The notes beneath the pieces were generated by a model. That model was not told the DNA's origin. It saw nothing but the letters and a program-made list of their open reading frames with translations, and did no database searches. This document shows positions 14,780 through 63,619 of a stretch of DNA of 64,000 nt, one piece after another (position 1 is the stretch's first letter; each line of letters begins with the position of its first letter). The translations under genes were made by a program, and so were the position numbers. Location: IMG/VR virus record IMGVR_UViG_3300045995_000722, one strand, 5' to 3'. This DNA is from a virus.

Positions 14780-14943
14780 TAAAATGTCACGGGTTCAAAT
14801 GTGCGAACTGCCCCCCGATTGTAGCTTACTCAGTTTTTCAAAAATAAAACTGAAAATTTTTGTCCTTGAATCTCGAATTTTTGGTTTTTAGTTTTAGATT
14901 CGGGTATAGTATAATGTAAGAACAAATCTCTTAGGAGGGCAAG

Positions 14944-16281
14944 ATGGGTAAGAAGACAGTAATTGAAACCGAAGCACCGAATCCCGAAGTTTTTGGGGAA
15001 GAGACAGGTATGGTAACTAAGGGCAAGGCTGAAGTAAAGGATGGCGTACAATACAATGCCTTGGGTCTGGAGTCTACCGCTGACATGAAGCATGTTAGCA
15101 AAATCTGGCAGGACAAATGCACTCCGTTTTTGGATTTTGCAGAGCAGGTTCAGAGACGGCAGGGTGGCAAAGTCGATCTTTTGAAGTCGCAGGATTATGT
15201 TAGGGTTGATGATACCTTGCATCTTCCTACTGGTGAGGGATTTACTGAGTTTGGTATGTATTCCCTTGTGACAAAGTATTGTGATCTTCCCGTAGGAATG
15301 ACTCAGTTCCTTCGCTCTACAGAGTGGGGAAATGGAGACCCCAAGTCTCCCGAAATGGTTAAGAAGCATTGGTCTGACCTTGCTACTTATCTGAACTTCG
15401 CTCTTGAGCAGTCTAACTATCGCTGGGAAGATGCTAGGGATCGTGGCGATAAGACAAGAGATTTGCTTCTCAGAATTCGCCCTGATGAAGATGGAAACCC
15501 CGTCATCCGAATGGTTGGAAGTGACCGATATGGAATTCTGAATAACTATGAAGTGTTGGAAATGATTCAGAATGCACTTCCTGCCTCAGACATCGATAAG
15601 GCTCTTGCCTCTCATGTCTTTGACAATGGCGATGATATGAAGGGCAATATTCTTCTTCCCGATAATATGAAGAAGTTTCCCGATTCTGATTATGGGGTAG
15701 GGATTGCTTTTTCTAATTCTGAAATTGGAAAGAAGACCGTTGAAATCCATCCTTTCCTGTTTCGTGCAATCTGCTTGAATGGTTGCATTTGGGGACGCAG
15801 GAACATGACTCAGGGTGTTTCCAAGAAGCATCTTGGAGAAATGAATAAAGATGATATTGCCGAGCATGTCAAGTATGTTTGTCAGATTGCTCTTAGTGAA
15901 GGTCATTCACTTCTTGAACAAATGAATTTCTCTCGTGATGCTTCTGTTCCTGAAGATTTGGTTGGCAATGTGATTGCTTACCTTACTCGTGAGAATAAAA
16001 TGACTGTAGCCGAAGGTAAGGCTTGGTACAATGACTACCAGGTTGAACCTTATTCTTCCGGTTTCGGAATTGTGAATGGGCTTACAAGGGCAGCGCAGCG
16101 GTATGATGGAAACGACCGCTGGAATCTTGAGAATATCGCTGGTTCCATTTTGACCCCTTCTCTAACTGCAACCAAAGAGCAGGTTGTAAACCGATGGGAC
16201 AAGGTAGTTGAAAGAGCCTCAGAGCTTGAGGAAAAGACTGTCAAGCAGTATCTTCGTGAAATTGAGCCTGTTACCAATTAA
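14944..16281 (+). CDS. DUF932-like protein
   Basis: SDRY..L.N..V, GIAFSNSEIG, FRAICLNG. Confidence 0.65.
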   Translation: MGKKTVIETEAPNPEVFGEETGMVTKGKAEVKDGVQYNALGLESTADMKHVSKIWQDKCTPFLDFAEQVQRRQGGKVDLLKSQDYVRVDDTLHLPTGEGFTEFGMYSLVTKYCDLPVGMTQFLRSTEWGNGDPKSPEMVKKHWSDLATYLNFALEQSNYRWEDARDRGDKTRDLLLRIRPDEDGNPVIRMVGSDRYGILNNYEVLEMIQNALPASDIDKALASHVFDNGDDMKGNILLPDNMKKFPDSDYGVGIAFSNSEIGKKTVEIHPFLFRAICLNGCIWGRRNMTQGVSKKHLGEMNKDDIAEHVKYVCQIALSEGHSLLEQMNFSRDASVPEDLVGNVIAYLTRENKMTVAEGKAWYNDYQVEPYSSGFGIVNGLTRAAQRYDGNDRWNLENIAGSILTPSLTATKEQVVNRWDKVVERASELEEKTVKQYLREIEPVTN

Positions 16282-16294
16282 CTAGCCCAAGGAA

Positions 16295-16326
16295 AAGATA
16301 GCCCACCTGGAAAGGTGGGCTATCTT
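16295..16326 (+). terminator. intrinsic terminator
   Basis: AAGATAGCCCACC / GGTGGGCTATCTT. Confidence 0.8.
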
Positions 16327-16399
16327 GCTTTTTGGTTTTGAATGGGGTAAAATGGTATACTATATTGGGGATGAATCCCCAAAAACACGGAGGAACCTC

Positions 16400-16639
16400 A
16401 TGGAACTGGTAACTAAAGCTGATGGTTGTGCCTGGTATGTTGACCCGGAAACTCTACCGGAAACACGAGAAAGAGTTGAAAAGGCGATTGAAGTGGCAGG
16501 GAAAACAAAAGTAGATATTCATATCGAATCTACTCCGCACAATCAGTATCCTACTCTGGAAGCGGCAATTAAAGCCTCAACCTGTGAAGTGATTGTTATT
16601 GAGGATACTGATCGTTCCTGCCGATATTACGCTGCATAG
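16400..16639 (+). CDS. hypothetical protein
   Basis: GGAGG SD. Confidence 0.75.
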   Translation: MELVTKADGCAWYVDPETLPETRERVEKAIEVAGKTKVDIHIESTPHNQYPTLEAAIKASTCEVIVIEDTDRSCRYYAA

Positions 16640-16814
16640 ATTTTGAAAAAGAATGGGTAAGGAGATGTCTTCTTGCCCATTCTTTCTGTTGATTATCTGC
16701 GAACTACCCCGATTTTTTTGATATTCAGTTTTATTTCTTTTTTTGGTTTTCAATTCCAATTCCTAGTATAATATAATAGTTACCCGATTAGGGATAAAAC
16801 AAGGAGAGAGCAAA

Positions 16815-17240
16815 ATGCGTGAGGGAACGGGAACAGTAACACTATATAATAGTTGGGGGGTTATAGCCTATCAAGGTCCAGGTTCTTTCAGCTATTTCCG
16901 ACATGATGATCGGGCTTCGGTAGAAATAAAGATACCGAAAGTTATCATGAGGGATGGCGTTTTCACCGCCGAATGTGTTTATGATAATCAGACAATGGTT
17001 ACAAGAGTTGAAATGGCTCATTTTTGGATGGATCAGGGAAATACTACTTTCAAGAATGAAAAGAGAGAAAACGGTAAAAGGATATATGCTGGTTATCCTG
17101 TTAGTTTCAATCCGTTGACTAAGCGACCTATCATAGATACTATAACTCCTGCTGTTAAGGGAGTTGCTGATAGAGTGACAAAGAGATTCATGGAATTGAT
17201 TGATAAAACTAAAGAAAAAGTAAATAGTTTTTCCAAGTAA
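16815..17240 (+). CDS. hypothetical protein
   Basis: AAGGAG SD after repeat promoter. Confidence 0.75.
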   Translation: MREGTGTVTLYNSWGVIAYQGPGSFSYFRHDDRASVEIKIPKVIMRDGVFTAECVYDNQTMVTRVEMAHFWMDQGNTTFKNEKRENGKRIYAGYPVSFNPLTKRPIIDTITPAVKGVADRVTKRFMELIDKTKEKVNSFSK

Positions 17241-17311
17241 AATCATTTTTGTTTTTGGTTTTCAATCTCAAGTTTGGGTATAATATAGTGTAAGTACTAT
17301 TCACTTAAGGA

Positions 17312-19058: not shown

Positions 19059-19160
19059 GAAACAAATTCAACCCTTGAAAAAGCCTAAGTCTTGAGGGGG
19101 GCTTAGGCTTTTTATTTGCCCCAAAATCCCCAGTTCGCACATTCTTGTATAATCAATTTT

Positions 19161-19634
19161 ATGAGAGAATATGCGTCAAAAATAATAAAACTTCCTGAAT
19201 TGCTTTCAGAAATACATACCAAAGGTATTGTTGTTTTTACTAATGGATGTTTTGATATCGTTCATTCGGCCCATGTAAAATATTTACAACAAGCACGATT
19301 ATTAGGGAATTATTTAATTGTGGCCGTAAATGGTGATTTATCTGTTAAACGATTAAAAGGGAAAGATCGTCCTATTATAAATGAACAAAATCGTATGGAA
19401 TTAATAGCTGCTTTAGAATGTGTGGATTATGTTATATTGATGGAAGATGATTTACCAAATAATCTGATTGCTGCTATTAAACCACATATTCATTGTAAGG
19501 GTGGGGATTATACGATAGAAACAATGCCTGAAACACAAACTGTGATAAATAATGGTGGAATGGTTAAGATAATTCCCTATATTGAAAACAATTCAACGAC
19601 TGATATAATTAATAAGATAAAACTGAGTATATGA
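19161..19634 (+). CDS. RfaE domain II-type (heptose-1-phosphate adenylyltransferase / cytidylyltransferase family) protein
   Basis: VFTNGCFDIVH..H..YL..A..LG..L.VAVN.D.SVKRLKG..RPI; KGGDY; STT.II.KI. Confidence 0.9.
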   Translation: MREYASKIIKLPELLSEIHTKGIVVFTNGCFDIVHSAHVKYLQQARLLGNYLIVAVNGDLSVKRLKGKDRPIINEQNRMELIAALECVDYVILMEDDLPNNLIAAIKPHIHCKGGDYTIETMPETQTVINNGGMVKIIPYIENNSTTDIINKIKLSI

Positions 19635-19665
19635 AATTGTGCGAACTAGGATTCTGATATGTCGC

Positions 19666-19698
19666 AATGTCCGTAGTTATCGACTAACTACGGACATT
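19666..19698. terminator. bidirectional terminator between convergent blocks
   Basis: 14-bp IR AATGTCCGTAGTTA / TAACTACGGACATT. Confidence 0.75.
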
Positions 19699-19704
19699 TT
19701 GGGA

Positions 19705-28333: not shown

Positions 28334-28615
28334 TTAACCAGTGATATCCCAAGTTCCTGTACAATCTCGACATTCTCTAATATGCAGTAAGAGATTCATT
28401 ATAGTATTGCCACTGCCGCAATAAGGGCATTTCCCCATTCCTGTAACTATTTTCTTTTCTTCTTTTTTCTTCTTCCTATCTGCTACTCTTTTCTTTAGGG
28501 CTTCCCCGAATACAATATGGATTTCGTCTCCCTCTCCTATGTATTCAGTAGAATCATGTGTTTCCCAAAACTCTATTTCTTCTTCTTCAGTTTGAAAATC
28601 AGGGATTTTCTTCAT
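28334..28615 (-). CDS. CopG/BrnA-antitoxin-like N-terminus fused to Zn ribbon
   Basis: IPDFQTEEEEIEFWETHDSTEY; CPYC...CRDC. Confidence 0.6.
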   Translation of the reverse strand: MKKIPDFQTEEEEIEFWETHDSTEYIGEGDEIHIVFGEALKKRVADRKKKKEEKKIVTGMGKCPYCGSGNTIMNLLLHIRECRDCTGTWDITG

Positions 28616-28812
28616 TCCTTAACCACCCAATCTCGGACAGAAGGGGAATTAAGGTGTTTGTAATATAGATGAACTATGACTCCTTGTAGTCCAAAGATAT
28701 CAGAAAATATAGGATTTTCAGATTTATATGTTTCTAATAAACTATTTTTAGCCTCTGCATCAGATGCAATAACTTGAACCCCTGACTCTACTTCCTGAAT
28801 TTCAATTTTCAT
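28612..28812 (-). CDS. hypothetical protein
   Basis: Coupled ORF. Confidence 0.65.
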   Translation of the reverse strand: MKIEIQEVESGVQVIASDAEAKNSLLETYKSENPIFSDIFGLQGVIVHLYYKHLNSPSVRDWVVKE

Positions 28813-28815
28813 TTC

Positions 28816-29061: not shown

Positions 29062-29113
29062 TTAGTTTCTCCTCCATTATACTATACCGGAAAGAGAGAT
29101 TGAAAACCAAGAA

Positions 29114-30043: not shown

Positions 30044-30044
30044 T

Positions 30045-32436: not shown

Positions 32437-32604
32437 ATTGTAGATAACTTGAAGGAGTATGACTTCCTCACCTCCACTATACTAAGTCATACTCCTTCAC
32501 CCCCCTTAACCCAAATGCGAACTACCCTGCTTTTCGAGATATTCTATTTTTATTTTTTGGTTTTGATTCTCCATAAATGGTATAGTATAATGGAGGAAAT
32601 CAAA

Positions 32605-37166: not shown

Positions 37167-37237
37167 GTCTGAAATCCGCTAGTTCGCACAATTATTTTAT
37201 TCAGTTTTATACTATAATATTGATAAGGTGGAAAATA

Positions 37238-42602: not shown

Positions 42603-42766
42603 GGCAAGGGGAAAGAGACCTCTATGGACAGATGGATGGGGGGGGTCTCTTTCCTTTTTGTGTTTTAGGGGTGGTTCGCACAATTATTTTTATTCAGTTT
42701 TGGTTTTGAGATTTATTTTCTGGTATAGTATAATAGGAAATAATCCCATTGTGGAGGAATAAAAGA

Positions 42767-44181: not shown

Positions 44182-44347
44182 TCCGAAGATTCGAGTATAA
44201 AGAAAAGGCAGGGGCGAAAAATCCCCTGTTTTTTCTTTGCCACAAATCTCTAGTTCGCACATTTCTATTTATTCAGTTTTTTGGTTTTGATTTTCGATTC
44301 CAGGTATAGTATAATAGAATTACTTCTATAGACGGAAAGGGATAAAA

Positions 44348-45497: not shown

Positions 45498-45656
45498 GAT
45501 GTTACACGGGGGTTAAGAGTGGGTTGAGGTAATAGAAACTCCACTAAACACCCCCGTTTCATATTGTACTATTGTGCGAACTACCCCAATTTCCCTAATA
45601 TTCAATTTTTTGGTTTTGATTCTTGATTCCGGGTATAGTATAGTGGAGGAAATCCC

Positions 45657-49275: not shown

Positions 49276-49593
49276 ATGGAACACTCAGTAATATGTGAGG
49301 TATGCGGCAAACAGAATGCAGTGAAGAGATGCTGGTATTGCGGCAAAAATATGTGTTTGGATTGTTTGTCGAATCCAGTAGTCCCCGATCAAGAATGTGG
49401 ACATGCGAAATGCGTTCTTTGCAATAAGTCAAACGAAACAAAGGGTTTTGATGAGAAATACCTTGCACTTCTTGAGGATTTGAAGGACAAAGCAGTAAAA
49501 AAGCATGAGAAAATCCTAGCAGAACTCAACGATAATGGTAGTTATATTCTTATGCTCAAAAAAGATATTGAGAGATTGAGAAATCCCAAGTAA
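49276..49593 (+). CDS. Zn-finger coiled-coil protein
   Basis: Multiple CxxC; flanked by repeats. Confidence 0.75.
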   Translation: MEHSVICEVCGKQNAVKRCWYCGKNMCLDCLSNPVVPDQECGHAKCVLCNKSNETKGFDEKYLALLEDLKDKAVKKHEKILAELNDNGSYILMLKKDIERLRNPK

Positions 49594-49643
49594 TTTTTGG
49601 TTTTGATACCCTGAAAGGGGTATAGTATAGTGGAGGAAAAGGA

Positions 49644-49799
49644 ATGTTAGCTTATTTCATAAGCGTGATATGGATAATCTGCACCATAGTTCTTGGGGGA
49701 CATTATATGTCTCATTCTCCATATTCAGTAACAATTCCCATTTGTGTTATGTCTGGTATTTTTGGATATGCACTAGGGGTCATAATAGAAAAACAATAA
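49644..49799 (+). CDS. small membrane protein (51 aa)
   Basis: Manually translated; after repeat/SD. Confidence 0.6.
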   Translation: MLAYFISVIWIICTIVLGGHYMSHSPYSVTIPICVMSGIFGYALGVIIEKQ

Positions 49800-49914
49800 G
49801 ATTTTGCACGGGGCACCTCCACAGCACGGCAAAAGAGAAAGCGGGGACGATTACTTCCCCGCTTTCTCTGATTTTGGTTTTGAGAGTTATAATGTGGTAT
49901 AATATAATAGACTA

Positions 49915-50027
49915 GGGGCCGAAACATATAATCCCTATGGGCTGGACTAGAGAGCCAGCACCCACTAACTGGGGTCAAACGGGCTAGTTAGGCACAAAAG
50001 AGATCACCTGTGTAGGTGGTCTTTTTT
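49915..50027 (+). ncRNA. candidate small RNA cassette
   Basis: Repeat promoter without SD, no ORF, internal hairpins, terminator GATCACCT/AGGTGGTC-T6. Confidence 0.55.
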
Positions 50028-50189
50028 GTTACTCAAAATACTCCAGTTCGCACAATTCTACTTATTCATTTTTGATATGTGCGACCTGCCCACTCTCTTC
50101 CCTTTATTCAGTTTTGATTTTAGATTTTTGGTTTTGAAACCCCATTCTTGGTATAATATAATAGAAGAAATCCTGTGGAGGGAAATCAA

Positions 50190-51101
50190 ATGGCAAATGA
50201 AAAAGCAAGAGCCGAAGTAACAAAGGGAATTTTGGAAGCACTTGACAATGGATTGGTTCCTTGGAATCAACCCTGGCAAAATATGTTCCCCATGAATGTT
50301 TCCGGTAGACCTTACCGGGGAGTTAATCGTTTCATGCTTTCTTTAGTTGGTGGGGAATATGTTTCCAAACCTGATGAAAAAGACGAATTTGTTCCCTTCA
50401 AAGATAACCGATACATCACCTTCAACAAGTGCAAAGAAATGGGTGGAAGTGTGATGAAAGGGAAACACGGTTTCCTGGTTATCTTCTGGACCCAATACCA
50501 GACAGAAGACGAAAACGGGAAACCCAAAACAATTCCTTATGCTAAACCTTGGAAGATTTTCAATGTTGAGCAGTGTCAAGGTTTAGACCTTCCACCAATT
50601 AAGGGACTGGACTTCAAACCCATCGACAAAGCACAAGAAATTGTCGATAATTGGTTGGATAAACCGGAAATTATTCACGGTGGAAACGGGGCTGGATATT
50701 CTGTAACAGCCGATAAGATTTATATGCCTAATCGTGAAACATTCGATAGCGAAGAAGCATATTATGCCACCTTGTTCCATGAACTGGGTCATTCAACCAG
50801 ACATGAAAAAAGATTGAATCGAATCAGAGAAGGGGACACAAGTTTAGAGAAATATAGCAAAGAAGAACTTGTTGCCGAAATGATATCAGCTTTTCTTTGT
50901 GCTGAAGCTCATATCACTTCCAGTTCACAAATTCAGCAGTCAGCAGCTTATATCGCAGGTTGGAAAAAAAGAATACAAGAAGATGATGGACTTGTGATGT
51001 CAGCAGCAAGTAAAGCACAGTATGCGGTCGATTTGATTCTTGGAATAAACGTCAAAGCAGTACCCGAAGGGGAACCCGAAGCGGAATTAGTTGCCGCATA
51101 A
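50190..51101 (+). CDS. ardC: ArdC-like ssDNA-binding antirestriction protein
   Basis: PW.QPW...PMN..G.PYRG.N, ..FNVEQC, YYATLFHELGH.T, YSKEELVAE. Confidence 0.9.
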   Translation: MANEKARAEVTKGILEALDNGLVPWNQPWQNMFPMNVSGRPYRGVNRFMLSLVGGEYVSKPDEKDEFVPFKDNRYITFNKCKEMGGSVMKGKHGFLVIFWTQYQTEDENGKPKTIPYAKPWKIFNVEQCQGLDLPPIKGLDFKPIDKAQEIVDNWLDKPEIIHGGNGAGYSVTADKIYMPNRETFDSEEAYYATLFHELGHSTRHEKRLNRIREGDTSLEKYSKEELVAEMISAFLCAEAHITSSSQIQQSAAYIAGWKKRIQEDDGLVMSAASKAQYAVDLILGINVKAVPEGEPEAELVAA

Positions 51102-51357
51102 TTGGTTTTGAGACCCCAATCCGGGTATAGTATAATAGTGATGCTTGTTTTCATTTTCTGATTCTCTTGGAAGCCTACCTGCCCTTGTAGTTTCGATTGC
51201 TATGGGTAAGGTAGGCGATTTTTTTGTCCCAATAATTGTGCGAACTACGGACATTTTCTTTTTATTCAATTTTCCTCAACTATCCGGTATTACCGGACAG
51301 TTCATTTTTGGTTTTCAATCTTTATTTAGGGTATAGTATAATGGAAGGGAACTAAAA

Positions 51358-51609
51358 ATGTATTACATCATAGTAGAACCACGGCATTTCGGCAAGATAG
51401 CTATTGTTGCTGACGAAGTCTCAGCAGATAAATGGATCAGAAATCACATTGATGAACTTAACCATAGTGGTTCATTGTGTCTTATTTGTTCCGAAGAACT
51501 CCGTGATGATTATTGTGAATTATCTGCAATGAAACGCTATCGTTGGGTAAATCGCAAAATCAATACGGAAACATATACCCGTGAACCTGATACCCAATTT
51601 GAGGGATAA
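51358..51609 (+). CDS. hypothetical protein
   Basis: After repeat. Confidence 0.7.
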   Translation: MYYIIVEPRHFGKIAIVADEVSADKWIRNHIDELNHSGSLCLICSEELRDDYCELSAMKRYRWVNRKINTETYTREPDTQFEG

Positions 51610-51664
51610 TTCCATTTTTGGTTTTCAATTTCTTTTCCAGGTATAATATAATGGAGGAAAACCA

Positions 51665-51859
51665 ATGACACCAGAAAACACAAGAAAGATACGGGAAATA
51701 GCACAAGATATTTCCTCGAATGATGGTACATTAACTACAAGAGAAAAGGCGTTAATGGAAATCCTTGTCAGAACTTTCAATGGGATGTCTTGTTCCGAAT
51801 CTCTTAAGGAAGCGGCAGGATTTGGTCAACGATCAAGTGAGGGATTCGGCAGTATCTAG
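51665..51859 (+). CDS. hypothetical protein
   Basis: Flanked by repeats. Confidence 0.75.
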   Translation: MTPENTRKIREIAQDISSNDGTLTTREKALMEILVRTFNGMSCSESLKEAAGFGQRSSEGFGSI

Positions 51860-51909
51860 TTTTGGTTTTCAATATCCTTTCCGGGTATAATATAATGGAG
51901 GAAAATTCG

Positions 51910-52374
51910 ATGGCAGCTTTTCAAATAAACAAAGTCTTTAAGTGGGATGTTACACATCTGTTTGATATAGAAACACAGATGCTTCCCAAATATAACATGA
52001 ACGAACGGGCAAAACTAATTTTCGTATGTTTTGAACCCGTTGTTGGTAAGGGTATTGGAATTCATGTCTGGTTAGAACGTGTTCTTGGATTGGAAATAAC
52101 CAACACAACTGACAATGAAGTAAGATGGATCGATTCCACTCGAAAGGTACAGGGGTCTGATGGATATATTCAAATAAGTGATATGTCAAGAAGTGCGGCT
52201 CTTGTTAGAGGATTAGATCGTGGTGAAATTCTCGGAAATGCGGCTGAAAACGCTGTATCTGATATAATGTTTGATCATGCTCTTGATTGGTATAAGAGAT
52301 TTGTTCCGAAGCATCATGCTTACCTAATCGAACTTGGGGCGATCAAGAAAGATGGAACCCATAAGAAAAGATAG
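51910..52374 (+). CDS. hypothetical protein
   Basis: Flanked by repeats. Confidence 0.75.
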   Translation: MAAFQINKVFKWDVTHLFDIETQMLPKYNMNERAKLIFVCFEPVVGKGIGIHVWLERVLGLEITNTTDNEVRWIDSTRKVQGSDGYIQISDMSRSAALVRGLDRGEILGNAAENAVSDIMFDHALDWYKRFVPKHHAYLIELGAIKKDGTHKKR

Positions 52375-52415
52375 TTTTTGGTTTTCAATTTCTTTTCAGG
52401 GTATAGTATAATGTC

Positions 52416-52649
52416 ATGAATAAACAAGAGAATCTAACGAAAATAGTTGAGGGATTGAAACGACAATCTTTATTGATCGGTCCTGAAGGCTATCGTGGGA
52501 ATACAGATTATGAAAAAGCTATTATAGCTCTTAATCTTGGTATTCAAACCCATGAGTCCGATCTAAAAACCTTTCTACAGATTGGTGTGGATCATGGTGA
52601 CTTTTCACAGAAATCGGCTGAACGGGTTTTGAGAAATTGGGAAACATAA
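52416..52649 (+). CDS. hypothetical protein, apparently leaderless
   Basis: ATG 3 nt after TATAAT, no SD. Confidence 0.7.
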   Translation: MNKQENLTKIVEGLKRQSLLIGPEGYRGNTDYEKAIIALNLGIQTHESDLKTFLQIGVDHGDFSQKSAERVLRNWET

Positions 52650-52761
52650 TCTATTTATGGTTTCCCCCTTCCATTAGTATGCGAACTATCCCCAATTCTC
52701 CCTTATTCAATTTTTGGTTTTCATTCCTATTTTTTGGTATAGTATAGTGGAGGAAAACCCA

Positions 52762-53082
52762 ATGACCAATATACCAATGAATACACCGTGGGGAATTGCT
52801 CAGACCCAAGATAAGGTTGCGGAAGGAATTATTTTCGTAACTACTGCAAGTCATGGGGGATTCTGTATTTCTCCTGAAGTTCATGCAAAAATGCCAAAGG
52901 CTTATCAGTCTACTTTTGCTCATGCTCCCAATAGGGACAAGAATTTCTGGTATGAGGAAGACTGCGATTATGCCAAGGTTATTCTGAGCTTCCCTGATAT
53001 GTTCATGGCAAAGGAAGTAGAAGTAGCCAAGAAAATGATAGAACAATATTTCCCTGAATCCCACATTGCCGCTAAGGGATAA
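52762..53082 (+). CDS. conserved mobile-element hypothetical protein
   Basis: TPWG.AQ......GI.FV.TASHGG....WYEEDC. Confidence 0.8.
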   Translation: MTNIPMNTPWGIAQTQDKVAEGIIFVTTASHGGFCISPEVHAKMPKAYQSTFAHAPNRDKNFWYEEDCDYAKVILSFPDMFMAKEVEVAKKMIEQYFPESHIAAKG

Positions 53083-53117
53083 TTGGTTTTCATTTCTATT
53101 TTTTGGTATAATATAAT

Positions 53118-53195
53118 GTGAGAGGTTCCCATAGGGAAGGCAACTGGTTAAAGGAGACGTGGTGCCCTGCTCCGGGCTAAATCCCATCCTCTCAC
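53118..53195 (+). promoter_or_regulatory. structured 5' leader (riboswitch-like)
   Basis: GTGAGAGG/CCTCTCAC closing stem, TTCCC/GGGAA, GGCAAC..GGTGCC. Confidence 0.45.
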
Positions 53196-53209
53196 TTAGG
53201 GAGAAATCA

Positions 53210-53434
53210 ATGTCAATCAAAACAAGAATTAGACCCCAAGTAAATGATGGTTGGATTGAAGGACCAATTCCTCCTCCTACTCGTCAATATTCCAAAGAGG
53301 AAATTGATGATCTGATTGTCCAAGCAAAAGTAAGGAGAATCAAGAGACAGCAAATTTCCCCTAAGATTCTTGCAATGTTGGATGAAAAGAGAAGAAGAGA
53401 AGCCAATTTCCAGAAGAAGAAGAAACGGAGATAA
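53210..53434 (+). CDS. basic hypothetical protein, paralog of 9444..9701
   Basis: GGGAG SD; shared IPPP..YSKEEI motif. Confidence 0.75.
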   Translation: MSIKTRIRPQVNDGWIEGPIPPPTRQYSKEEIDDLIVQAKVRRIKRQQISPKILAMLDEKRRREANFQKKKKRR

Positions 53435-53436
53435 TC

Positions 53437-53646
53437 ATGGGGAAGATAGATGAAAGATATTTCACGGAAATGGAAAAGGCAATAGATAATGCCAGCATAG
53501 AAACAATCAGAACCATGAAAGAATTGGAATCCAGGAATGTTGGGGCAGAAATATATATGCCCTATGTTATGACTGGTTTGGCTTCAATCATGCAGACACA
53601 GTTGGGAATAATCAAATTCCTAAAGTTGATGAACGAAAATGAATAA
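53437..53646 (+). CDS. hypothetical protein
   Basis: GGAG SD. Confidence 0.7.
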   Translation: MGKIDERYFTEMEKAIDNASIETIRTMKELESRNVGAEIYMPYVMTGLASIMQTQLGIIKFLKLMNENE

Positions 53647-53818
53647 AGAAATAAAAGAGATAACATCAGAACTCCAAGACTTGATACAAAGAGTACGAGG
53701 AATTGCATTGAGAATTGGTGATTATGAAATTGTGGATAAAATGGATGACTTATCTAAAGAAGCAGAAGAATCAAGACTGCATATGGAATTCCATTTATCA
53801 GGTCAAAATGATGATTGA
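53639..53818 (+). CDS. hypothetical protein (59 aa)
   Basis: Manually translated. Confidence 0.55.
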   Translation: MNKEIKEITSELQDLIQRVRGIALRIGDYEIVDKMDDLSKEAEESRLHMEFHLSGQNDD

Positions 53819-53943
53819 TCGTTAGGGCAAATTGCCCCAACGATATAATGCGAACTAACCCCATTTTTTTGATATTCAATTTTTTGGTTGCCCAATTGGT
53901 TTTCATTTCTTATTTTTGGTATAGTATAATGGAGGGAATCCAA

Positions 53944-54204
53944 ATGTTCTACGATGAAAACCTTTTCAGTGGTTTGTGGGTTGAAGATGAAACCCGGAAT
54001 ATGTGGATTATTCCCGATGCTGTTAATTCGGGAGGAATGGGCATAGAAGGCCCAGATATTCCACAAATCATCGATAAACTTTACCAGATTCGTTCTGATA
54101 ATGGGGGGATCGTGGAAAGAAGAGATGTGGAAAAACTCGGTCTTTTTGTTGTTGATGATTGTTTGAAAAGATACAACGAAATAGACGGATATTATCACGC
54201 CTGA
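53944..54204 (+). CDS. hypothetical protein
   Basis: Flanked by repeats. Confidence 0.75.
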   Translation: MFYDENLFSGLWVEDETRNMWIIPDAVNSGGMGIEGPDIPQIIDKLYQIRSDNGGIVERRDVEKLGLFVVDDCLKRYNEIDGYYHA

Positions 54205-54258
54205 TTTTGGTTTTCAATCTTGAAACCAGGTATAATATAATAGATAGGAGGTGACATA

Positions 54259-54426
54259 ATGAGTGATTCTAATTCTGGTCTTAGTATTGGAGCAATAGTT
54301 GGCATGGGTCTTGCGGCTTGGATTTCTTGGACAAATGTCCCGTCTGTTTTTTGGGCAATTTTCCACGGTGTCTTTGGTTGGCTTTACGTCATCTATGCCT
54401 TTATTGTGGGTAAAGTTCATTTCTAA
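54259..54426 (+). CDS. small membrane protein (55 aa)
   Basis: Manually translated; GGAGGT SD; ISW..SVFWAIFHG.FGWLYVIY. Confidence 0.7.
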   Translation: MSDSNSGLSIGAIVGMGLAAWISWTNVPSVFWAIFHGVFGWLYVIYAFIVGKVHF

Positions 54427-54442
54427 GAAAAGGAAATATATC

Positions 54443-54616
54443 ATGTCTATTATAAAACTTAGTGTTGATCTGGATAAAGCCAATGATCCAGAACAGATAT
54501 TGCGGCTTTTATCTGCATTGCCATTTGACGATCACATGTCATTGATTGTTATAAATAATGGTAAAAGGACAAGCGTACATCCCCATGAATTATCAAATGA
54601 AGCTTGCAAGGACTAA
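54443..54616 (+). CDS. hypothetical protein
   Basis: AAGGA SD. Confidence 0.6.
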   Translation: MSIIKLSVDLDKANDPEQILRLLSALPFDDHMSLIVINNGKRTSVHPHELSNEACKD

Positions 54617-54673
54617 TTTCTAGTTTTGGTTTTCAAACCCCCATTTAGGTATAATATAATGGAGGGAACTACC

Positions 54674-54970
54674 ATGAACTACATAGAACAAAATTGCACA
54701 ATTGTACATGATGGACAGAAATTCACAGCAAGTGGGGCAATTGTGAATGATATTTTTGTCATTGCTTACTTAGGTAAGAATGGGGAACTGAATAATTGTC
54801 ATGGGACACCAAGTGGAACTTATCGAATAACTTCCACTTGGAAAACACCCCGCAGTTATATATCTAATGTAATGTGTCAAGTTGAAGCCAAAATTGATGG
54901 GGTGATTTACACGGGACGCTCCTGTGGAATTGGAATGGCTTTCAAAGGAAAAAGGAAATCCCGGAACTAG
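54674..54970 (+). CDS. hypothetical protein
   Basis: Flanked by repeats. Confidence 0.75.
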   Translation: MNYIEQNCTIVHDGQKFTASGAIVNDIFVIAYLGKNGELNNCHGTPSGTYRITSTWKTPRSYISNVMCQVEAKIDGVIYTGRSCGIGMAFKGKRKSRN

Positions 54971-55022
54971 TTTTGGTTTTCAAACTTACTTTAGGGTATA
55001 GTATAGTGGAGGAACCCGAACA

Positions 55023-55397
55023 ATGAAAACAGCAACAGAAATTCAAAGCGAACTGGGACAATTCTACGGAACAGAAGGTTATGTCCGGTGGTCTCCCCTA
55101 TTCCGAAACTGTCTTCTGACCGATGGGGCACACTTCATCGCTGAATCTTGTGGGGCTTATTGGCTCATGGATGCAATCGCTTCCTATTTGCCGAAAGCCA
55201 AGAACGACGGCATGATGTTTGCAGAGTTGAAAGTCAAGGACAATTCCGCAACTCTGACCCTTCACGATGGCAGGAAACCCCGGAAAGTCTACGCAACACA
55301 AGTGATTGAGTATACAGACTTTCCTCTGCCCGAAATCACAATATGGGCAGAGTATGACGGGGAAAAGTGGGTACTCTTGCTCCCCTCGGAACATTAA
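55023..55397 (+). CDS. conserved mobile-element hypothetical protein (DUF6876-like)
   Basis: FYGTE.Y......LLTDG..F.A..CGAYWL.D.IAS...Q.IEYTDFPL.EI. Confidence 0.8.
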   Translation: MKTATEIQSELGQFYGTEGYVRWSPLFRNCLLTDGAHFIAESCGAYWLMDAIASYLPKAKNDGMMFAELKVKDNSATLTLHDGRKPRKVYATQVIEYTDFPLPEITIWAEYDGEKWVLLLPSEH

Positions 55398-55544
55398 GAG
55401 GGGAAACGAATAAAAGGGGGCGAAAGCCCCCTTACCCCCCCCCCACTAATATGCGAACTACACTAACTTTTCTAATACTCAGTTTTTTGGTTGCCTATTT
55501 TGGTTTTCAATCTTAAAATTTGGTATAGTATAATGGAGATAATC

Positions 55545-55883
55545 ATGGATATCGGTATAGCTTTAATTCGTGTTGTTGGTGATCCCACTTCTACTGAGCA
55601 AATGCTTAGTAAGATAGCGGCTTGTTTCCCTGGTCCTACCACAAAGATATATGAAACAAATCAAGCTGTGTCGTTCAGGAAGGACTTATTATTTTCTGAA
55701 GTTTACCCTGCATTGCACTTGATAGGTATCGATATTGTTGATAATGATAATATCATAGTGTATACAGAAGAAGGGGAACAACAGGGAATAAGGCCAATAA
55801 GTAAAAAGGCTATGAAAGCCACTGAAATATATGACTCTTTTGCGTCTCTTCAACATTATCAAGATGAGCTTTTGAATTCTTAG
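55545..55883 (+). CDS. hypothetical protein
   Basis: Flanked by repeats. Confidence 0.75.
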   Translation: MDIGIALIRVVGDPTSTEQMLSKIAACFPGPTTKIYETNQAVSFRKDLLFSEVYPALHLIGIDIVDNDNIIVYTEEGEQQGIRPISKKAMKATEIYDSFASLQHYQDELLNS

Positions 55884-55932
55884 TTTTGGTTTTCAATCCT
55901 CATTTCTGGTATAGTATAGTGGAGGAACCCGA

Positions 55933-56136
55933 ATGGCTAAAGATAAATTCCAGACCTGGCTTGAAAACCGCATTAAGATGCTAGAAAAGGAATCTGGCAA
56001 TCGTAGTCATGGTTATGCAACCAGAGCGGGTATCGGACAAAAAGTTGGTGAAGCCACAACAATTCTTGAAGCATATATCAAACACATCGATGGGGAACAT
56101 AATATAGTGGAGGAACCCGAAAATGAAGAGAGTTGA
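55933..56136 (+). CDS. hypothetical protein, paralog of 58451..58663
   Basis: DKF.TWLE.RIKML.KE..NRSHG..TRAGIGQKVGEA; reads through a half repeat. Confidence 0.75.
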   Translation: MAKDKFQTWLENRIKMLEKESGNRSHGYATRAGIGQKVGEATTILEAYIKHIDGEHNIVEEPENEES

Positions 56137-56449
56137 CACAAGCAAAGTAGACCCCAAAATTCTCGCTGATATACGGGAAATGACTGGGTTGAAGTTGGAA
56201 GACAATTACACCGAAGACGAACTGCTCACCCTTTACCTTCGGTATGTCTGTGATATAGTGAAGGTGGATCATATTCTCGCCGCTATTGCCAACATCCATG
56301 AAGCGGCAAAAGAAAATCAGTATATAATTCATTGGTTGTCTGGACCTGATACAGAAATCAGTGGATATGACCAGGCTGATGCTTTTCGTAAAGCAGGAAT
56401 AGGGGCAGGGGCAATTCCCGCTGTGGATTGGGTTGAAGAAGTAAAGTAG
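56123..56449 (+). CDS. hypothetical protein
   Basis: After right-half-only repeat. Confidence 0.75.
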   Translation: MKRVDTSKVDPKILADIREMTGLKLEDNYTEDELLTLYLRYVCDIVKVDHILAAIANIHEAAKENQYIIHWLSGPDTEISGYDQADAFRKAGIGAGAIPAVDWVEEVK

Positions 56450-56499
56450 TTTTGGTTTTCAATCCTCATTTCTGGTATAATATAGTGGAGGAACCCGAA

Positions 56500-56688
56500 A
56501 TGTGGCTTATAGATGATCTTGGTTATCGTGTTCAGCGTGTCAATAGCAATGGGGAAAGATATGTAGTTTTTGACACATATCGCCCTACTAGTAGTTGGTA
56601 CTGTTCCCAACCACTGAATACCCCACAAGAGGCTTTTGACTACATCTTGAGCCTTGCGGGGTATGATGGATGTGATATGCGGATATAG
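56500..56688 (+). CDS. hypothetical protein
   Basis: After repeat/SD. Confidence 0.7.
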   Translation: MWLIDDLGYRVQRVNSNGERYVVFDTYRPTSSWYCSQPLNTPQEAFDYILSLAGYDGCDMRI

Positions 56689-56693
56689 GGAGT

Positions 56694-56888
56694 ATGATTG
56701 AAATGGCAAAAGATAAAGTGATGGAAGAAATAGGGAAACTCAATGGGATGATTTATGATCTTGCAAAAGATGAATCATTACCCCATCATGCCCATAATGA
56801 TGTTGTGGATTTGATGGTTCAACTCAATAGTGTTCTTCGTTCAATGTCAGAAAGAACAGCGGAAGAGTTGGCGAGTTTGAGATCATAG
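56694..56888 (+). CDS. hypothetical protein
   Basis: GGAG SD. Confidence 0.65.
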   Translation: MIEMAKDKVMEEIGKLNGMIYDLAKDESLPHHAHNDVVDLMVQLNSVLRSMSERTAEELASLRS

Positions 56889-57004
56889 GGATTTTATCCC
56901 TTTTATTTATATGCGAACTACTCCAGATTTTCCGATACTCAGTTTTTGATCGCCCAATTTGGTTTTCAATCTTAAAATTTGGTATAGTATAATGGAGCAA
57001 ACAA

Positions 57005-57295
57005 ATGGTGTCACTAAAGGAAAAAGTAGGACAAATGAATGGGTTGGGAATCAAACTCGCCAATACCATTGAACATAATCCCGATCTATTTGAGTTGTTG
57101 ACTTCTGACGAAACAGATACTATTTATGGTGTTGCTGATGGACTCACGGAAGAATTTGTCATGCAACGCATAGAAGGTCGTTGTTCCTTACAAGCAATGT
57201 TAGATTGGTCTTGTGATAAATTGGAAGGTTTTGTTGATACTCGTTTGAAAGAATTGCATAACATAGGGGAAAAACTACTTCTGGGGAATTCCTAG
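57005..57295 (+). CDS. hypothetical protein
   Basis: Flanked by repeats. Confidence 0.75.
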   Translation: MVSLKEKVGQMNGLGIKLANTIEHNPDLFELLTSDETDTIYGVADGLTEEFVMQRIEGRCSLQAMLDWSCDKLEGFVDTRLKELHNIGEKLLLGNS

Positions 57296-57363
57296 TTTTG
57301 GTTTTCAATCCTTGTTTCTGGTATAGTATAATGTAAGCCAAATACCTTGGAGGAGGTCAAGAA

Positions 57364-57777
57364 ATGATTCGTGGTATGGATTGTCAGTCACCCGCAATAT
57401 GTGTTTTATCCGAATCTCCTGAAGTGTTTTATCTTACTGGTAGCCGCTTCTTCGGAACGGAGGCAGAATTCTCTGACTACGATTTTTTCGTCCAGCGGGC
57501 AGCAATGGGGACAAGTGAGCGACATCTAGTAAGGAACGGTTTTCGGTTGGATAGTGACACCCGGTATTCTGACAAGGTTTACATTCGGGACAATGTCCAT
57601 GTTCAGATAGTGGGAAACGCCCCACTGAAGAACCGAATTCAAGACCTCATGAAGAGGATGTTGCCAAAAGAAGACTTGCGGCTTCTCCTTACCGATAAGG
57701 TCAGAGCACGACGATTGTGGTCGCTATTCAATAGTCTGGTGATGGTCGATCCAACAAAACCGGAAAGAGCTTGGTAG
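57364..57777 (+). CDS. minimal nucleotidyltransferase (Pol-beta superfamily)
   Basis: YLTGSRFFG....SDYDFF. Confidence 0.7.
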   Translation: MIRGMDCQSPAICVLSESPEVFYLTGSRFFGTEAEFSDYDFFVQRAAMGTSERHLVRNGFRLDSDTRYSDKVYIRDNVHVQIVGNAPLKNRIQDLMKRMLPKEDLRLLLTDKVRARRLWSLFNSLVMVDPTKPERAW

Positions 57778-57939
57778 GTTAAGTAAGGACAGGGCAGGGG
57801 AACTCCACAAAGGGAAATCTCATCTACGGTAGGATGGGGTTTCCCACTTTATTTGATATGCGAACTACACCAATTTTATTGTTATTCAATTTTGGTTTTG
57901 AATTCTTAATATTGGTATAATATAGTGGAGGAACTGAAA

Positions 57940-58155
57940 ATGCTGATATTTAATATAACTCCACAACCGCAACTCCAAGAAAGATATCCCATGTTTAAGG
58001 TGGAACCTCAAACAGAAGAAAGCAAGAATTGGCTTCGACTCCACCCTGAATATAATAGGGATTTTCTTGACATATTCTATCTTCAAGGGTTCATATTTGA
58101 TGTGGAAGTGTCCAGTGGAAATGTCCTTGAAAATGGGGTCAAACAGTTCGTTTGA
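57940..58155 (+). CDS. hypothetical protein
   Basis: Flanked by repeats. Confidence 0.7.
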   Translation: MLIFNITPQPQLQERYPMFKVEPQTEESKNWLRLHPEYNRDFLDIFYLQGFIFDVEVSSGNVLENGVKQFV

Positions 58156-58375: not shown

Positions 58376-58450
58376 GGGATTTCCCCTTTTTATTTTAATG
58401 CGAACTAACCCGAAAACAAAAATAATCAGTTTTAAGATTAGTGATATGAA

Positions 58451-59666: not shown

Positions 59667-59764
59667 CTCATCCCTCTATTATATTATACCCTAAACCAAT
59701 AATCAAAACCAAAACTGAATAACCGATAAATCTGCGGTAGTTCGCATTATCTTTCACCCCAAAA

Positions 59765-59982: not shown

Positions 59983-60139
59983 ACCATTATATTATACCAC
60001 AAACCAAGAATCAAAACCAAATTGAACGATCAAAAACTGAATAATCCCCAATCCTTCCTAGTTCGCATTTCCCCCAAATGCAAAACCGGTGCGAACTCTT
60101 GCCGCACCAGGTCTTGCCACTCTACTATTCTATACCTTT

Positions 60140-60405: not shown

Positions 60406-60668
60406 CACCATTATACTATACCACAAACCAAGAATCAAAACCAAATTCCTGACAGATCATAAGAAAATTTCCCTAGTTCGCACATTCCCCATACTCAATT
60501 TTTCAGGGGCAGCTAGTTACACCTTGTAACCAACTGCCCCATTCAAGTGTGATCAAAAAAAATAAATAATTTTATTTTGTGTTTTTTGACTCTACTTCAT
60601 GACTACTTCCCAACCTTTCTCACTAGATAGTCGTTGCAAAAAATAAATAAAGGTTCATTGCTCAGATG

Positions 60669-61383: not shown

Positions 61384-61690
61384 CGGACTTCCTCCATTAT
61401 ACTATACCCGGAAATTGGAATCAAAACCAAAAAACTGATTATCTCTAAATCCCCGATAGTTCGCATAATAATGAGAACAAGAAAAGCACGGTGGAATCGG
61501 AAGTCACGATCTTCCGATGTAATCTGCCCCGTGCTTTTCCTGCGTCCCTGCCCTGTCGTCCGAAATCTACTTGGGTAGCATCAGTATCCAGATGCACAAC
61601 CCGAAGCAAATGAAAAATCCTGTATTAGCGGTAGCATCCAAAATCCGTTCTTTCATTGTTGTCTCCACTATATTATACCCGGAAGAAGGT

Positions 61691-61882
61691 TTAGAAACCA
61701 AATTCTTCTTCTTCTTCATTCCGTGTAGCTTTTGAATTAGCAGGTTGAATATCCCACTGCTCGGGGACTTTGTCTCCTACCTCCAGTCCAAAACAAGCAT
61801 TGGGGGCTTCTACAAAGTAATAGTTATCCCCTATTCTCTCAGCTATTCCTCCACCTTGGGTTCCGTATACAGGATTACTCAT
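61691..61882 (-). CDS. hypothetical protein
   Basis: After repeat/SD. Confidence 0.75.
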   Translation of the reverse strand: MSNPVYGTQGGGIAERIGDNYYFVEAPNACFGLEVGDKVPEQWDIQPANSKATRNEEEEEFGF

Positions 61883-61931
61883 TGGACTTCCTCCATTATA
61901 CTATACCTAGTTCGAGTATTCAAAACCAAAA

Positions 61932-62150
61932 CTAAATACAATGGGCGTATTCTACCCCTTGGGATTCTACCAAAAGATCAGCAAAAAAATCCAAAGCATC
62001 AGCAGCATTATGGAAATTCACGGATTTGCTAATCAAAACTTCTGCATCAGGGGCATATAAGTATACCAATCTATACTTGAAAGGATTTGGCTTCTTATCC
62101 CAACAAGTTAGTTTGATCCCAAAAGTTTCAAGCAGTGTACGAGTTTTCAT
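61932..62150 (-). CDS. hypothetical protein
   Basis: Flanked by repeats. Confidence 0.7.
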   Translation of the reverse strand: MKTRTLLETFGIKLTCWDKKPNPFKYRLVYLYAPDAEVLISKSVNFHNAADALDFFADLLVESQGVEYAHCI

Positions 62151-62258
62151 TGGTTTCCCCTCTACTATACTATACCAGAAAACCAAATTCAAAACCAAAA
62201 CTGAATAATCTAAAACCCCTATTAGTTCGCACATTAGAATAAGGGGAAAAATTTCCCC

Positions 62259-62627
62259 TTATTCAGCAAAAGTTCTGATCTCGTCACCAGTCAAACCCAA
62301 TCCCCATATTTCATTATAGTCCTGCAAAACAGCTATCTTACAATCGATAGGCAACTTGGCAAAGTTGATTTTCTTTCCAAGGTGACTATAGGTAGGTCGA
62401 TCAATCTGTGTTGGGGACTCCCCATGTTGTCCTATCCCCTGCGGGTGAAACGGCGAAGCGTTCATGCCTAAGTATTGAAACCAACCATCTCTTTCTCGGT
62501 AATTTCCCGTATAAACCACGGTGTAACGATCCATAGCCCCATCTGGTCCAGAATCATATACCCGTATATTTTTCGGCTGGTTGTCAGGCAACAAACTTTC
62601 TCGTCTTTCCTCTTGTCTCTTGGTCAT
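62259..62627 (-). CDS. conserved phage hypothetical protein
   Basis: YD.G....DRYTVVY...M.A.PFHPQG.GQ.G...HLGK.I.F.KLP..C. Confidence 0.8.
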   Translation of the reverse strand: MTKRQEERRESLLPDNQPKNIRVYDSGPDGAMDRYTVVYTGNYRERDGWFQYLGMNASPFHPQGIGQHGESPTQIDRPTYSHLGKKINFAKLPIDCKIAVLQDYNEIWGLGLTGDEIRTFAE

Positions 62628-62881
62628 GTGATTTCCCTCTACTATACTATACCCAGAAACTAAATTCAAAACCAAAAAACTGAATAAACCAAAATTCCCC
62701 TTAGTTCGCATTATTCCCATAATAAACAATGAGGGGGCAGGAAACCGGTTTCCTCCCCCTCTGTTGCAGTTCAAAAATTAAATTAAAAGTGTATTAGTTT
62801 TGTATTGTTTACGCGATAACCACCCTCTTTCTTGTTTTCTTCTATTATACTATACCGGGTTCGGGGTTTCAAAACCAAAAA

Positions 62882-63487
62882 CTAATCAAGCCTTCCATCG
62901 GCGTGTGCCCTGATTCCTGCCTCTGCCAAAACACCCGCGTAAGCTCTAGCCCAAGCCATTTTACGCTCGTATGACTGGCTACGATCACGAGGGTAAATAA
63001 TCATAGCCCTCTGATAATCGCTATAACCTCCCCCATGATGCTTCTTGGCATAGTTCGCCGCTTGGGAATTTGCTGGGCGAATTGTTACCCAACCGAACCC
63101 ACAAACTCCTTCGGGAACATGCCATTCTTGTTTAACCCGTGAATTATCATCTAACGGGTTGACATGTTGCTGTACAATCATAGGAATAGGTGTCACCGCG
63201 TCATACGCCTCTTTCCCTGCCTTCTCAGCGGCAAGGAATAGCTTTCGCAATTCAACCTTCCCAAAGTGAGGGTTTGCCTCTTTCATGGTTTGTGGCAACT
63301 TATCCAGAGTATGAAAAGTTGAAACCCCATGTAAGTTGGCATACTCATGAGTGATTGGCTCTTCGGTTTCGGTCCAAGGTCGCTCACCTTCTGAACGAGT
63401 TCTGAGCCAATAGGACTTTGACTTGGTACTTGTCACAATCACAAAAGGCTCTTTGTTTCTTGGGTGAAATTCTCGTTTCCAGTTCAT
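62882..63487 (-). CDS. conserved phage hypothetical protein
   Basis: GVCGFGWV.I.PA...SQSYERK.A.A.AYA.VL...GI.A....RLD. Confidence 0.85.
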   Translation of the reverse strand: MNWKREFHPRNKEPFVIVTSTKSKSYWLRTRSEGERPWTETEEPITHEYANLHGVSTFHTLDKLPQTMKEANPHFGKVELRKLFLAAEKAGKEAYDAVTPIPMIVQQHVNPLDDNSRVKQEWHVPEGVCGFGWVTIRPANSQAANYAKKHHGGGYSDYQRAMIIYPRDRSQSYERKMAWARAYAGVLAEAGIRAHADGRLD

Positions 63488-63619
63488 CGGGGTTTCCTCC
63501 ATTATACTATACCCAAAACAATAATTGAAAACCAAAGTTGGGCGCCCAAAACTGAAAGTAAAACTGAATAAAATAATTGGGGGCTTAGTTCGCATATAAA
63601 ATTAGGGGGCGATTTGCCC

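Follow-up and report, generated by a model that had tools for sequence, protein, structure and literature searches.

Phage-encoded sigma factors direct promoter classes of their own, as exemplified by the gp28 and gp33/34 classes of SPO1, and the promoters of the extracytoplasmic function (ECF)/RpoE group carry the consensus GGAACTT, about 16 base pairs (bp), TCAAA. The conserved inverted repeats of phiC31 offer a comparison for repeated sites that are read as operators. In the middle promoters of phage T4, a phage-specific box replaces the -35 element: the MotA box, (a/t)(a/t)(a/t)TGCTTtA, lies 12 +/- 1 bp from an excellent -10 element, the activator is a monomer, one half of which binds DNA and the other sigma, and the stacking of different promoter classes is established (PMC2988021). 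The stoperators of Cluster A mycobacteriophages (L5 gp71 type) are asymmetric single 13-mers at more than 20 intergenic sites, with an orientation that is correlated with transcription; they are bound by a two-domain monomer, lose function on reversal, and act in lysogeny (PMC9283540). Here, we analyze a repeated two-box element, the A-B module, in a stretch of 64,000 nucleotides (nt), called the window below, from the uncultivated river phage IMGVR_UViG_3300045995_000722, and compare it with these systems.

The module occurs in two forms. In type I, box A (TGCGAACTA) is followed on the same strand by a spacer of 15 or 16 nt (N15 or N16) and box B (TAYTCARTTTT); in type II, the reverse complement of A is followed by N9 or N10 and then B. 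The modules are located at operon heads, in DNA that also contains 92 copies of a core element of the form TTTTGGTTTT(G/C)A, about 12 nt, GGTATAGTATARTGGAGG, 7-9 nt, ATG. In a generic sigma-70 scan the core at operon heads reads TTGAnn-17-TATAAT, and the scan picks out the cores and not the modules. We tentatively favor the view that the module is a second, phage-specific promoter class, placed in tandem upstream of the sigma-70-like core at a subset of operon heads, and would give this view a probability of roughly 0.45.

T4 middle promoters are similar in layout. Like them, the module has a 9-bp phage-specific box that starts with TGC, ends with TA and replaces the -35 element, a fixed short spacer and a hexamer beginning with TA, and it is present in dozens of copies that are often stacked with other promoter classes. 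It differs in the sequence of the box, TGCGAACTA (TGCGAACYA) rather than TGCTTtA; in its spacer of 15-17 rather than 12 +/- 1 bp; in a box B (TAnTCA) without the T at -7 needed in T4 middle promoters; in the 14 bp of conserved flanks around A and the existence of inverted copies; and in that a Pfam scan of 80 proteins of the window shows no MotA or AsiA homolog. Promoters of the SPO1 type share with the module two non-canonical boxes at sigma-like spacing, high conservation within one phage and absence from host genomes, and they define a temporal class, as the module would if it is a promoter. Unlike the SPO1 case, no sigma gene is seen in the available 70 kilobases (kb), and the inverted upstream box could not be read by sigma region 4.

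The resemblance to ECF/RpoE promoters is that box A contains GAACT and box B TCA(A/G). Against this, AAC and TCA are 20 bp apart rather than about 18 bp, the conservation of the module goes far beyond that of ECF elements, no ECF sigma gene was found, and an exact-pattern scan of 185,579 genomes gave chance matches only. With the Cluster A stoperators the module shares asymmetry and many intergenic copies, with an orientation tied to transcription for type I only; it differs in having two boxes 15 bp apart, an upstream box that tolerates reversal, no sequence similarity, and no sign of a temperate lifestyle. The motif sequence is new to the collections searched. As a class-specific promoter or regulator site in a large phage, it would belong to a known kind of element; what is unusual is that conserved copies have the upstream element inverted in place.

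Anatomy and distribution of the A-B module

The window encodes about 138 small genes and has a guanine-plus-cytosine (GC) content of 37%. In all, about 70 kb of a probably much larger phage genome is available, and the DNA was found in riverine metagenome runs only, none of them listed as RNA. The module census allowed at most one mismatch per box, with a profile hidden Markov model (HMM) of type I as a cross-check, and found 26 modules in the window, 19 of type I and seven of type II; the HMM gave no extra copies in the window and none at all in 1-14 kb. Box A is present in 21 exact copies (0.19 expected; 21 was reached in 0 of 100 shuffles), box B in 22 (0.83 expected), and the composite A-N13..18-TAYTCARTTTT in 14 (0.00 expected), with a gap of N15 or N16 in every one. 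The two boxes are essentially never found singly.

The original prediction, made from the sequence alone, had described such a two-box motif, and its existence is borne out by these counts. It had put the number at about 24, with a 15-bp spacer that was twice 16 bp. The strict spacing stands, in that a scan of the window finds no type I spacer other than N15 or N16, and the numbers become 26 copies with N15 in 16 of the type I modules and N16 in three (14802, 59738 and the degenerate 50080, TGCGACCTG). All six of the flipped copies that it listed are present, and a seventh, at 19619-19648, had been missed. The type II spacer is N9 at 37180 and 60474 and N10 in the remaining copies, and an eighth type II copy lies outside the window, about 5.4 kb to its left (L050:75). 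The modules of the window are as follows:

14802..14837, plus strand: type I, A variant TGCGAACTG, N16, B as TACTCAGTTTT; core promoter 65 nt further downstream
16698..16732, plus strand: type I, N15
19131..19160, plus strand: type II, inverted A, N10, B variant TAATCAATTTT; ATG directly after B, without core or Shine-Dalgarno sequence, of the cytidylyltransferase-like gene 19161-19634
19619..19648, B on the minus strand: type II, at a convergent junction; an inverted pair with 19131-19160 around one gene; absent from the original prediction
26669..26703, plus strand: type I, orphan, 9 nt past tRNA-Gln; downstream of it a hairpin and then the tail end of a minus-strand block
32516..32550, plus strand: type I, B variant TATTCTATTTT; 15-bp hairpin upstream
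37180..37208, plus strand: type II, N9; then TATAAT and a gene with a Shine-Dalgarno sequence, no standard core
42672..42701, plus strand: type II, TGGTTCGCA, N10; B runs into the core
44251..44280, plus strand: type II, N10; B runs into the core
45575..45609, plus strand: type I, N15; head of the operon with the 239-amino-acid gene used to find relatives
50044..50073, plus strand: type II, N10, B variant TATTCATTTTT; upstream of ardC
50080..50115, plus strand: type I, degenerate, TGCGACCTG, N16; in tandem behind the type II copy at 50044
51239..51273, plus strand: type I, N15; small hairpin between B and core
52680..52714, plus strand: type I, N15; merged with the core
53849..53883, plus strand: type I, N15, then a palindrome-like element, then the core
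55452..55486, plus strand: type I, N15, then a degenerate palindrome, then the core
56912..56946, plus strand: type I, N15, then a palindrome-like element, then the core
57859..57893, plus strand: type I, N15; merged with the core; 73 bp from A to GGAGG
58399..58433, plus strand: type I, orphan, B variant TAATCAGTTTT; at a convergent junction, with the stop codon of the minus-strand gene 17 nt past B
59711..59746, minus strand: type I, N16; merged with the core
60033..60067, minus strand: type I, N15, then a palindrome-like element, then the core; head of a non-coding cassette
60474..60502, plus strand: type II, B directed against the minus-strand block; A faces the core at 60422(-)
61431..61465, minus strand: type I, N15, B variant TAATCAGTTTT
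62197..62231, minus strand: type I, N15; merged with the core
62676..62710, minus strand: type I, N15; merged with the core
63560..63594, minus strand: type I, N15, then the perfect palindrome TTGGGCGCCCAA, then the core

Box A extends beyond its nine bases. When 25 copies are aligned on A in its own orientation, all of them show conservation over about 23 bp, WWTR-TGCGAACTA-SSSS-N3-TTT, with WWTR before the box, four G/C positions after it and TTT at +16 to +18, and in type II these flanks invert along with A. Counted from the first base of B, the 23-bp element spans -28 to -6 in type I and, in type II, -29 to -7 with N10 or -28 to -6 with N9. Type II is an in-place inversion of one 23-bp element, with a pivot near the 3' end of the 9-mer. 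The asymmetric box in two orientations had been thought to follow two spacing rules; the inversion is real, and the difference in spacing arises because the same bases relative to B carry the 23-bp element inverted in place. Box B itself reads T-A-(Y/A)-T-C-A-R-T-T-T-T, often with GA just 5' of it and A or C after the T-run.

Between B and the core promoter the interval varies: it is 9-11 bp in copies with a T-run that passes into TTTTGGTTTT, 23-26 bp in those with a palindrome-like element in between, and up to about 50 bp elsewhere. Because A and B keep a strict spacing and B and the core do not, A-B can be regarded as a unit of its own. In the merged copies, 9-11 bp separate the start of B from TTGGTTTT, in agreement with an earlier description of a T-tract that runs into the core to give a full version of about 75 bp. 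At the genes 19161 and 37238 the standard core is missing behind the module.

Nearly all operon heads in 42-64 kb carry a module; there are four modules in 14.8-19.6 kb, one each at 26.7, 32.5 and 37.2 kb, and none in 1-14 kb or inside the minus-strand block of 20-31 kb. These positions fit the placement at the head of cassette groups claimed in the original prediction. Most modules start 10-25 nt past a stable hairpin, and the mean folding energy of the 60 nt upstream of the modules is -17.0 kcal/mol, compared with -8.6 +/- 4.6 in random windows. The statement that the motif follows a terminator hairpin therefore holds for most copies and not for 45575, 61457, 60474 and 26669, which lack a preceding stable hairpin (the last of these comes after tRNA-Gln). 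A hairpin within the module RNA was considered and rejected: the mean minimum free energy is -1.1 kcal/mol, against -2.0 for shuffles, so the module has no structure of its own. No Rfam family matches the module, the only matches in the search being three tRNAs, and there is no intrinsic terminator, in the sense of a GC-rich hairpin with a U-run, inside the element; the hairpins lie upstream of box A.

Conservation of the module in related phages

Homologs of the 239-amino-acid protein encoded behind module 45575 are found, at 48-51% identity, in other contigs from the same river samples. The contig L041 (12.9 kb, GC 50%) shares three proteins with the window at 46-51% identity and a fourth at 25%, and contains eight modules, all co-directional with genes. 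Six of the eight have the form TGCGAAC(C/T)A, N15-17, TAnT(C/A)(A/G)RTTTT, and the other two have TGCGTTCTA at N15. In these two, at L041:8863-8897 and 9914-9948, the central tetranucleotide of box A alone is reversed (TGCGTTCTA for TGCGAACTA), at the usual 15-bp spacing. The modules of L041 lie 23-65 bp upstream of a core that retains GGTATA...TGGAGG and differs in its upstream half. A second contig, L039 (GC 42%), has a single module, in the order tRNA, hairpin, A-B, 28 nt, AGGAGG, and the ATG of an 81-amino-acid gene; no core-type or other promoter-like sequence is present between the module and this gene.

Besides the boxes and their spacing, the relatives also keep a pattern within the spacer (an S-run, then ATTTT), and the pairing of modules with genes differs between relatives. 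The module is maintained by selection within a small group of phages and is specific to that group, because two related phages keep the boxes and the spacing while spacers, flanks and core promoter differ. The two-part cis element of the original prediction, with its constrained geometry, is upheld. Relatives at 41-46% identity lack the motif, and a profile HMM of the module had no match in 29 IMG/VR loci that carry the 239-amino-acid family.

There is no near-identical DNA among the INPHARED phages, and nothing similar in IMG/VR or GTDB genomes. The exact composite motif has three matches in IMG/VR and two in the 185,579 GTDB species genomes, and these can be put at chance level since they lie inside coding sequence or are isolated. 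The motif is not a common host promoter. The pattern of the core element likewise gave single chance matches only in IMG/VR, JGI metagenomes and GTDB, and a literature search with the 9-mer TGCGAACTA returned unrelated primers and operators only. The epimerase gene, at about 55% identity to many phyla, is uninformative as to the host. River contigs from four runs, together with JGI assemblies, are identical to the window and broken at the repeats; population variants or alternative junctions at the modules are not visible in these identical contigs, which break at the repeats.

Several of the IMG/VR relatives (L135, L145-L148, L150, L151 and L156) are large phage contigs that carry the 239-amino-acid family and have dense intergenic repeats of their own. 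The repeats of several such contigs are of the Bacteroidota -7 type (GTAYCTTTGCA), and in one contig a hairpin and ATTCTGGAACTTGA precede start codons.

Promoter, operator or other signal

What would a second promoter class look like? We infer it from the anatomy, spacing, context and conservation in relatives described above, and in such a scheme the module would bind polymerase, supply a start site and respond to a factor of its own. Box B (TAnTCA, a purine and TTTT) would be the melting and initiation part and would set the direction. If TAnTCA is taken as the -10 element, the 9-mer would fall at -36 to -28 and the 23-bp A element (WWTR-TGCGAACYA-SSSS-N3-TTT) at about -40 to -18, where it could be the docking site for a specificity factor foreign to ordinary host promoters. 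Candidates for this factor would be a phage sigma or a MotA-like activator partnering the host polymerase. Another specificity factor is implied because the boxes miss the housekeeping consensus while the core promoters fit it. The conserved flanks of A and its inversion in place suggest that A is contacted by a protein of its own and not by sigma region 4; type II would accordingly suit an activator on a flexible linker and not direct reading by region 4. The operons that bear modules, in 14.8-19.6 kb and above all in 42-64 kb, including that of ardC, would gain an additional expression window or condition, a stacking that may be compared with that of T4 early and middle promoters.

Several observations argue for a promoter. 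First, the boxes are asymmetric and 15 bp apart, with +1 allowed in the window and up to +2 in a relative, and such a tolerance of +1 to +2 bp is typical of -35/-10-type recognition. Second, the orientation of type I agrees with local transcription in 19 of 19 copies in the window, eight of eight in L041, and the one copy in L039. Third, the module is independent of the core, from which B lies at variable distances in the window and in L041, and it sits at operon heads. Fourth, the L039 module is the sole candidate signal before its gene, and in the window the genes 19161 and 37238 likewise have no standard core behind their modules. Also in favor are the boxes, spacing and spacer pattern that persist in diverged phages, the lack of RNA structure, the mere chance matches in host genomes, and the precedent of T4 middle promoters, where a phage box takes the place of the -35 element in stacked promoter classes (PMC2988021).

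A number of other observations weigh against this view. With respect to a sigma-70 form of the promoter, GCGAAC, the hexamer that lies 17 bp before TAYTCA, agrees with TTGACA at two of six positions and does not qualify as a -35 element; TAYTCA has the T at -12 and the A at -11, but nearly all copies have A at -7, where sigma-70 needs T. The type I geometry is GCGAAC, 17-18 bp, TAYTCA, always co-directional and within the 17 +/- 1 bp of sigma-70 promoters; in type II the upstream box is inverted, and in three of the eight copies the module is directed away from genes. Type II cannot be a plain -35/-10 promoter, and the conserved spacer that moves with the inverted A is not explained by sigma region 4. 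Furthermore, B runs into a terminator, or antisense into another operon, in three of the eight type II copies (19619-19648, 60474 and L050:75, where it is antisense to the block or directed away from it) and in the two type I orphans, 26669 and 58399, which have no gene downstream; the census and the local context agree with the original prediction on both orphans and on the counter-polar 60474. A hairpin intervenes after B and before the core at 51239 and 14802. The co-orientation of type I could be hitch-hiking, because B physically overlaps the core in most copies. Finally, the 80 Pfam-scanned proteins include no sigma factor, MotA or AsiA, though only about 70 kb of the genome is at hand. 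A promoter, which the original prediction had thought unlikely, explains slightly more of the data.

The main alternative is an operator, at which a phage regulator (a repressor or switch, built as a two-domain chain or of two subunits) would bind A and B together, and so control the adjacent core, stop read-through, or both. We consider this less likely than a promoter; it accounts for the tolerance of either orientation and for the single copies at convergent junctions. The 23-bp A element is found in the same place in either orientation, as expected for a bound protein and not for a sigma contact; A and B occur together; the 26 dispersed intergenic copies mark a regulon-like subset of operons; and a single copy per convergent junction would be enough for a block in both directions. 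There is also a precedent in asymmetric sites read by a two-domain monomer at more than 20 intergenic places (PMC9283540), except that L5-type stoperators lose function on reversal, and here A is reversed in eight conserved copies. It is difficult to see how repression would work from the place that the module occupies, upstream of the core at a variable distance and not overlapping it, or why the only signal before the L039 gene should be an operator, and no candidate repressor appears among the scanned window proteins.

In a more novel version, the module would be a promoter for a phage-directed transcription machinery, with a 23-bp element that is free in orientation at a fixed position. 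A phage activator, whichever way it faces on the DNA, would bring polymerase to an unusual TAnTCA/RTTTT start, and modules at block boundaries would fire antisense into convergent operons as a timed shut-off. In this full form the proposal seems unlikely.

Another possibility is that the module belongs to the upstream transcription unit, as a sequence-specific signal for pausing, termination or insulation in support of the hairpin terminators. The position of most copies, 10-25 nt past a stable hairpin, would be explained in this way, as would the orphans at block ends without a gene behind them, and several hairpins of the GC-rich relative lack a U-tract. Even so, the L041 modules at 4907 and 11432 come after a stop codon without any hairpin, the terminators in 1-14 kb and 20-31 kb carry no module, just one strand bears a module at each convergent junction, and the module is unstructured as RNA and can have its A inverted, all of which makes this explanation quite improbable.

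A site for recombination or mobility (terminal repeats or crossover points that shuffle or invert cassettes), or a selfish repeat without a regulatory role, is least probable of all: it could draw on the gene 19161-19634 between two inverted type II modules, on the inferred inversion junctions at 19.65, 26.70 and 58.43 kb that directly adjoin a module, and on module-gene pairings that are not kept between relatives, but the contigs of four samples and of JGI are an exact match to the window and show no other arrangement at the modules, no recombinase is seen among the proteins scanned, strict internal spacing and conservation despite diverged flanks point to a protein-read function, and box A shows no target-site-like duplication (similarity of a copy's flank to its own spacer 5.22, against 5.06 between copies; permutation p = 0.30). 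The recombination or architectural site of the original prediction finds no support in the identical contigs or the duplication test.

A few further candidates were rejected. A Bacteroidota-type -33/-7 promoter was considered as the principal explanation, TAGTTTTG in the internal cassettes matching TAnnTTTG, and was discarded because all genes have a GGAGG Shine-Dalgarno sequence and the operon heads read TTGAnn-17-TATAAT. An archaeal host was set aside since ArdC, GerE, an L7/L12-like domain and a T4-type RNA ligase belong to bacterial or phage families. The IHF site, Tus-Ter and the ComX cin-box show partial likeness, and none of them suits the full set of copies.

Almost all that is known of large uncultivated phages is a list of genes, which leaves out their transcription programs. 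The motif, together with some 90 core promoters, amounts to a readable regulatory map, in which operons that share a second control input, including that of the anti-restriction gene ardC, can be recognized. If the module is a promoter class, there would be an undiscovered phage specificity factor, and the 40-bp module would serve as a compact part with an upstream half that can be turned around; as an operator, it would mark a regulon under one phage regulator. Under either reading, the module is a conserved marker of this phage group in metagenomes.

Possible inverted blocks, a third element and neighboring genes

The orphan modules can be read as operon heads that were severed by segment inversions. 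The minus-strand block after 26703 ends at the core 30899(-), back to back with the plus-strand core 30953, and turning the putatively inverted segment 26704-30925 back would join A-B to a core at one end and a terminator to a core at the other. More generally, both minus-strand blocks, 19649-26254 and 26704-30925, look like segment inversions, with a beheaded A(-B) module at each tail end, and their head cores lie back to back with plus-strand cores (26219/26295 and 30899/30953). The cytidylyltransferase-like gene 19161-19634 has type II modules on both sides, inverted relative to each other. Its start may be leaderless or nearly so, because the gene begins right after B without a Shine-Dalgarno sequence or core promoter.

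The core elements themselves fall into two forms. Those at operon heads are mostly TTTTGGTTTTGA (TTGAnn, 17 bp, TATAAT), and those of internal cassettes mostly TTTTGGTTTTCA. Because of this difference in sequence, the internal copies may be less strong as promoters or may serve mainly in translation.

A third, palindrome-like element, TTG(G/A)NCGNYCAA, has 17 matches at no more than one mismatch, against 5.05 expected. Seven to eight promoters have it between B and the core, among them the head of the operon that encodes a GerE-family protein (73 amino acids, 36557-36778) and the next promoter. Its positions are:

26243(-), 35694, 36783, 53884, 55487, 56946, 60022(-) and 63538: third element, perfect (TTGGGCGCCCAA) at 63538

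The original prediction had put forward the LuxR protein at 36557, which is this GerE-family protein, as a possible binder of the motif. Nothing ties the protein to box A, and a GerE homolog with 41% identity is present in a relative that has neither motif. The third element could be the operator of this protein, and is a better candidate site than box A; being a dyad, it is also more natural for a LuxR-type dimer.

The module-rich part of the window encodes ardC (50190-51101) and genes of the DUF6876, DUF7007 and DUF932 families. ArdC, DUF7007 and DUF6876 are encoded within 42000-58000, and DUF932 proteins earlier in the window; the set of ArdC, DUF7007, DUF6876 and DUF932 is typical of plasmid leading regions and anti-defense islands. 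To the left of the window, L132:352-1330, roughly 1 kb long, is AT-rich and non-coding and separates a minus-strand gene from the plus-strand block. It holds two to three degenerate type II-like units, each with a CCCTGGG-type palindrome, and could be an origin or control region.

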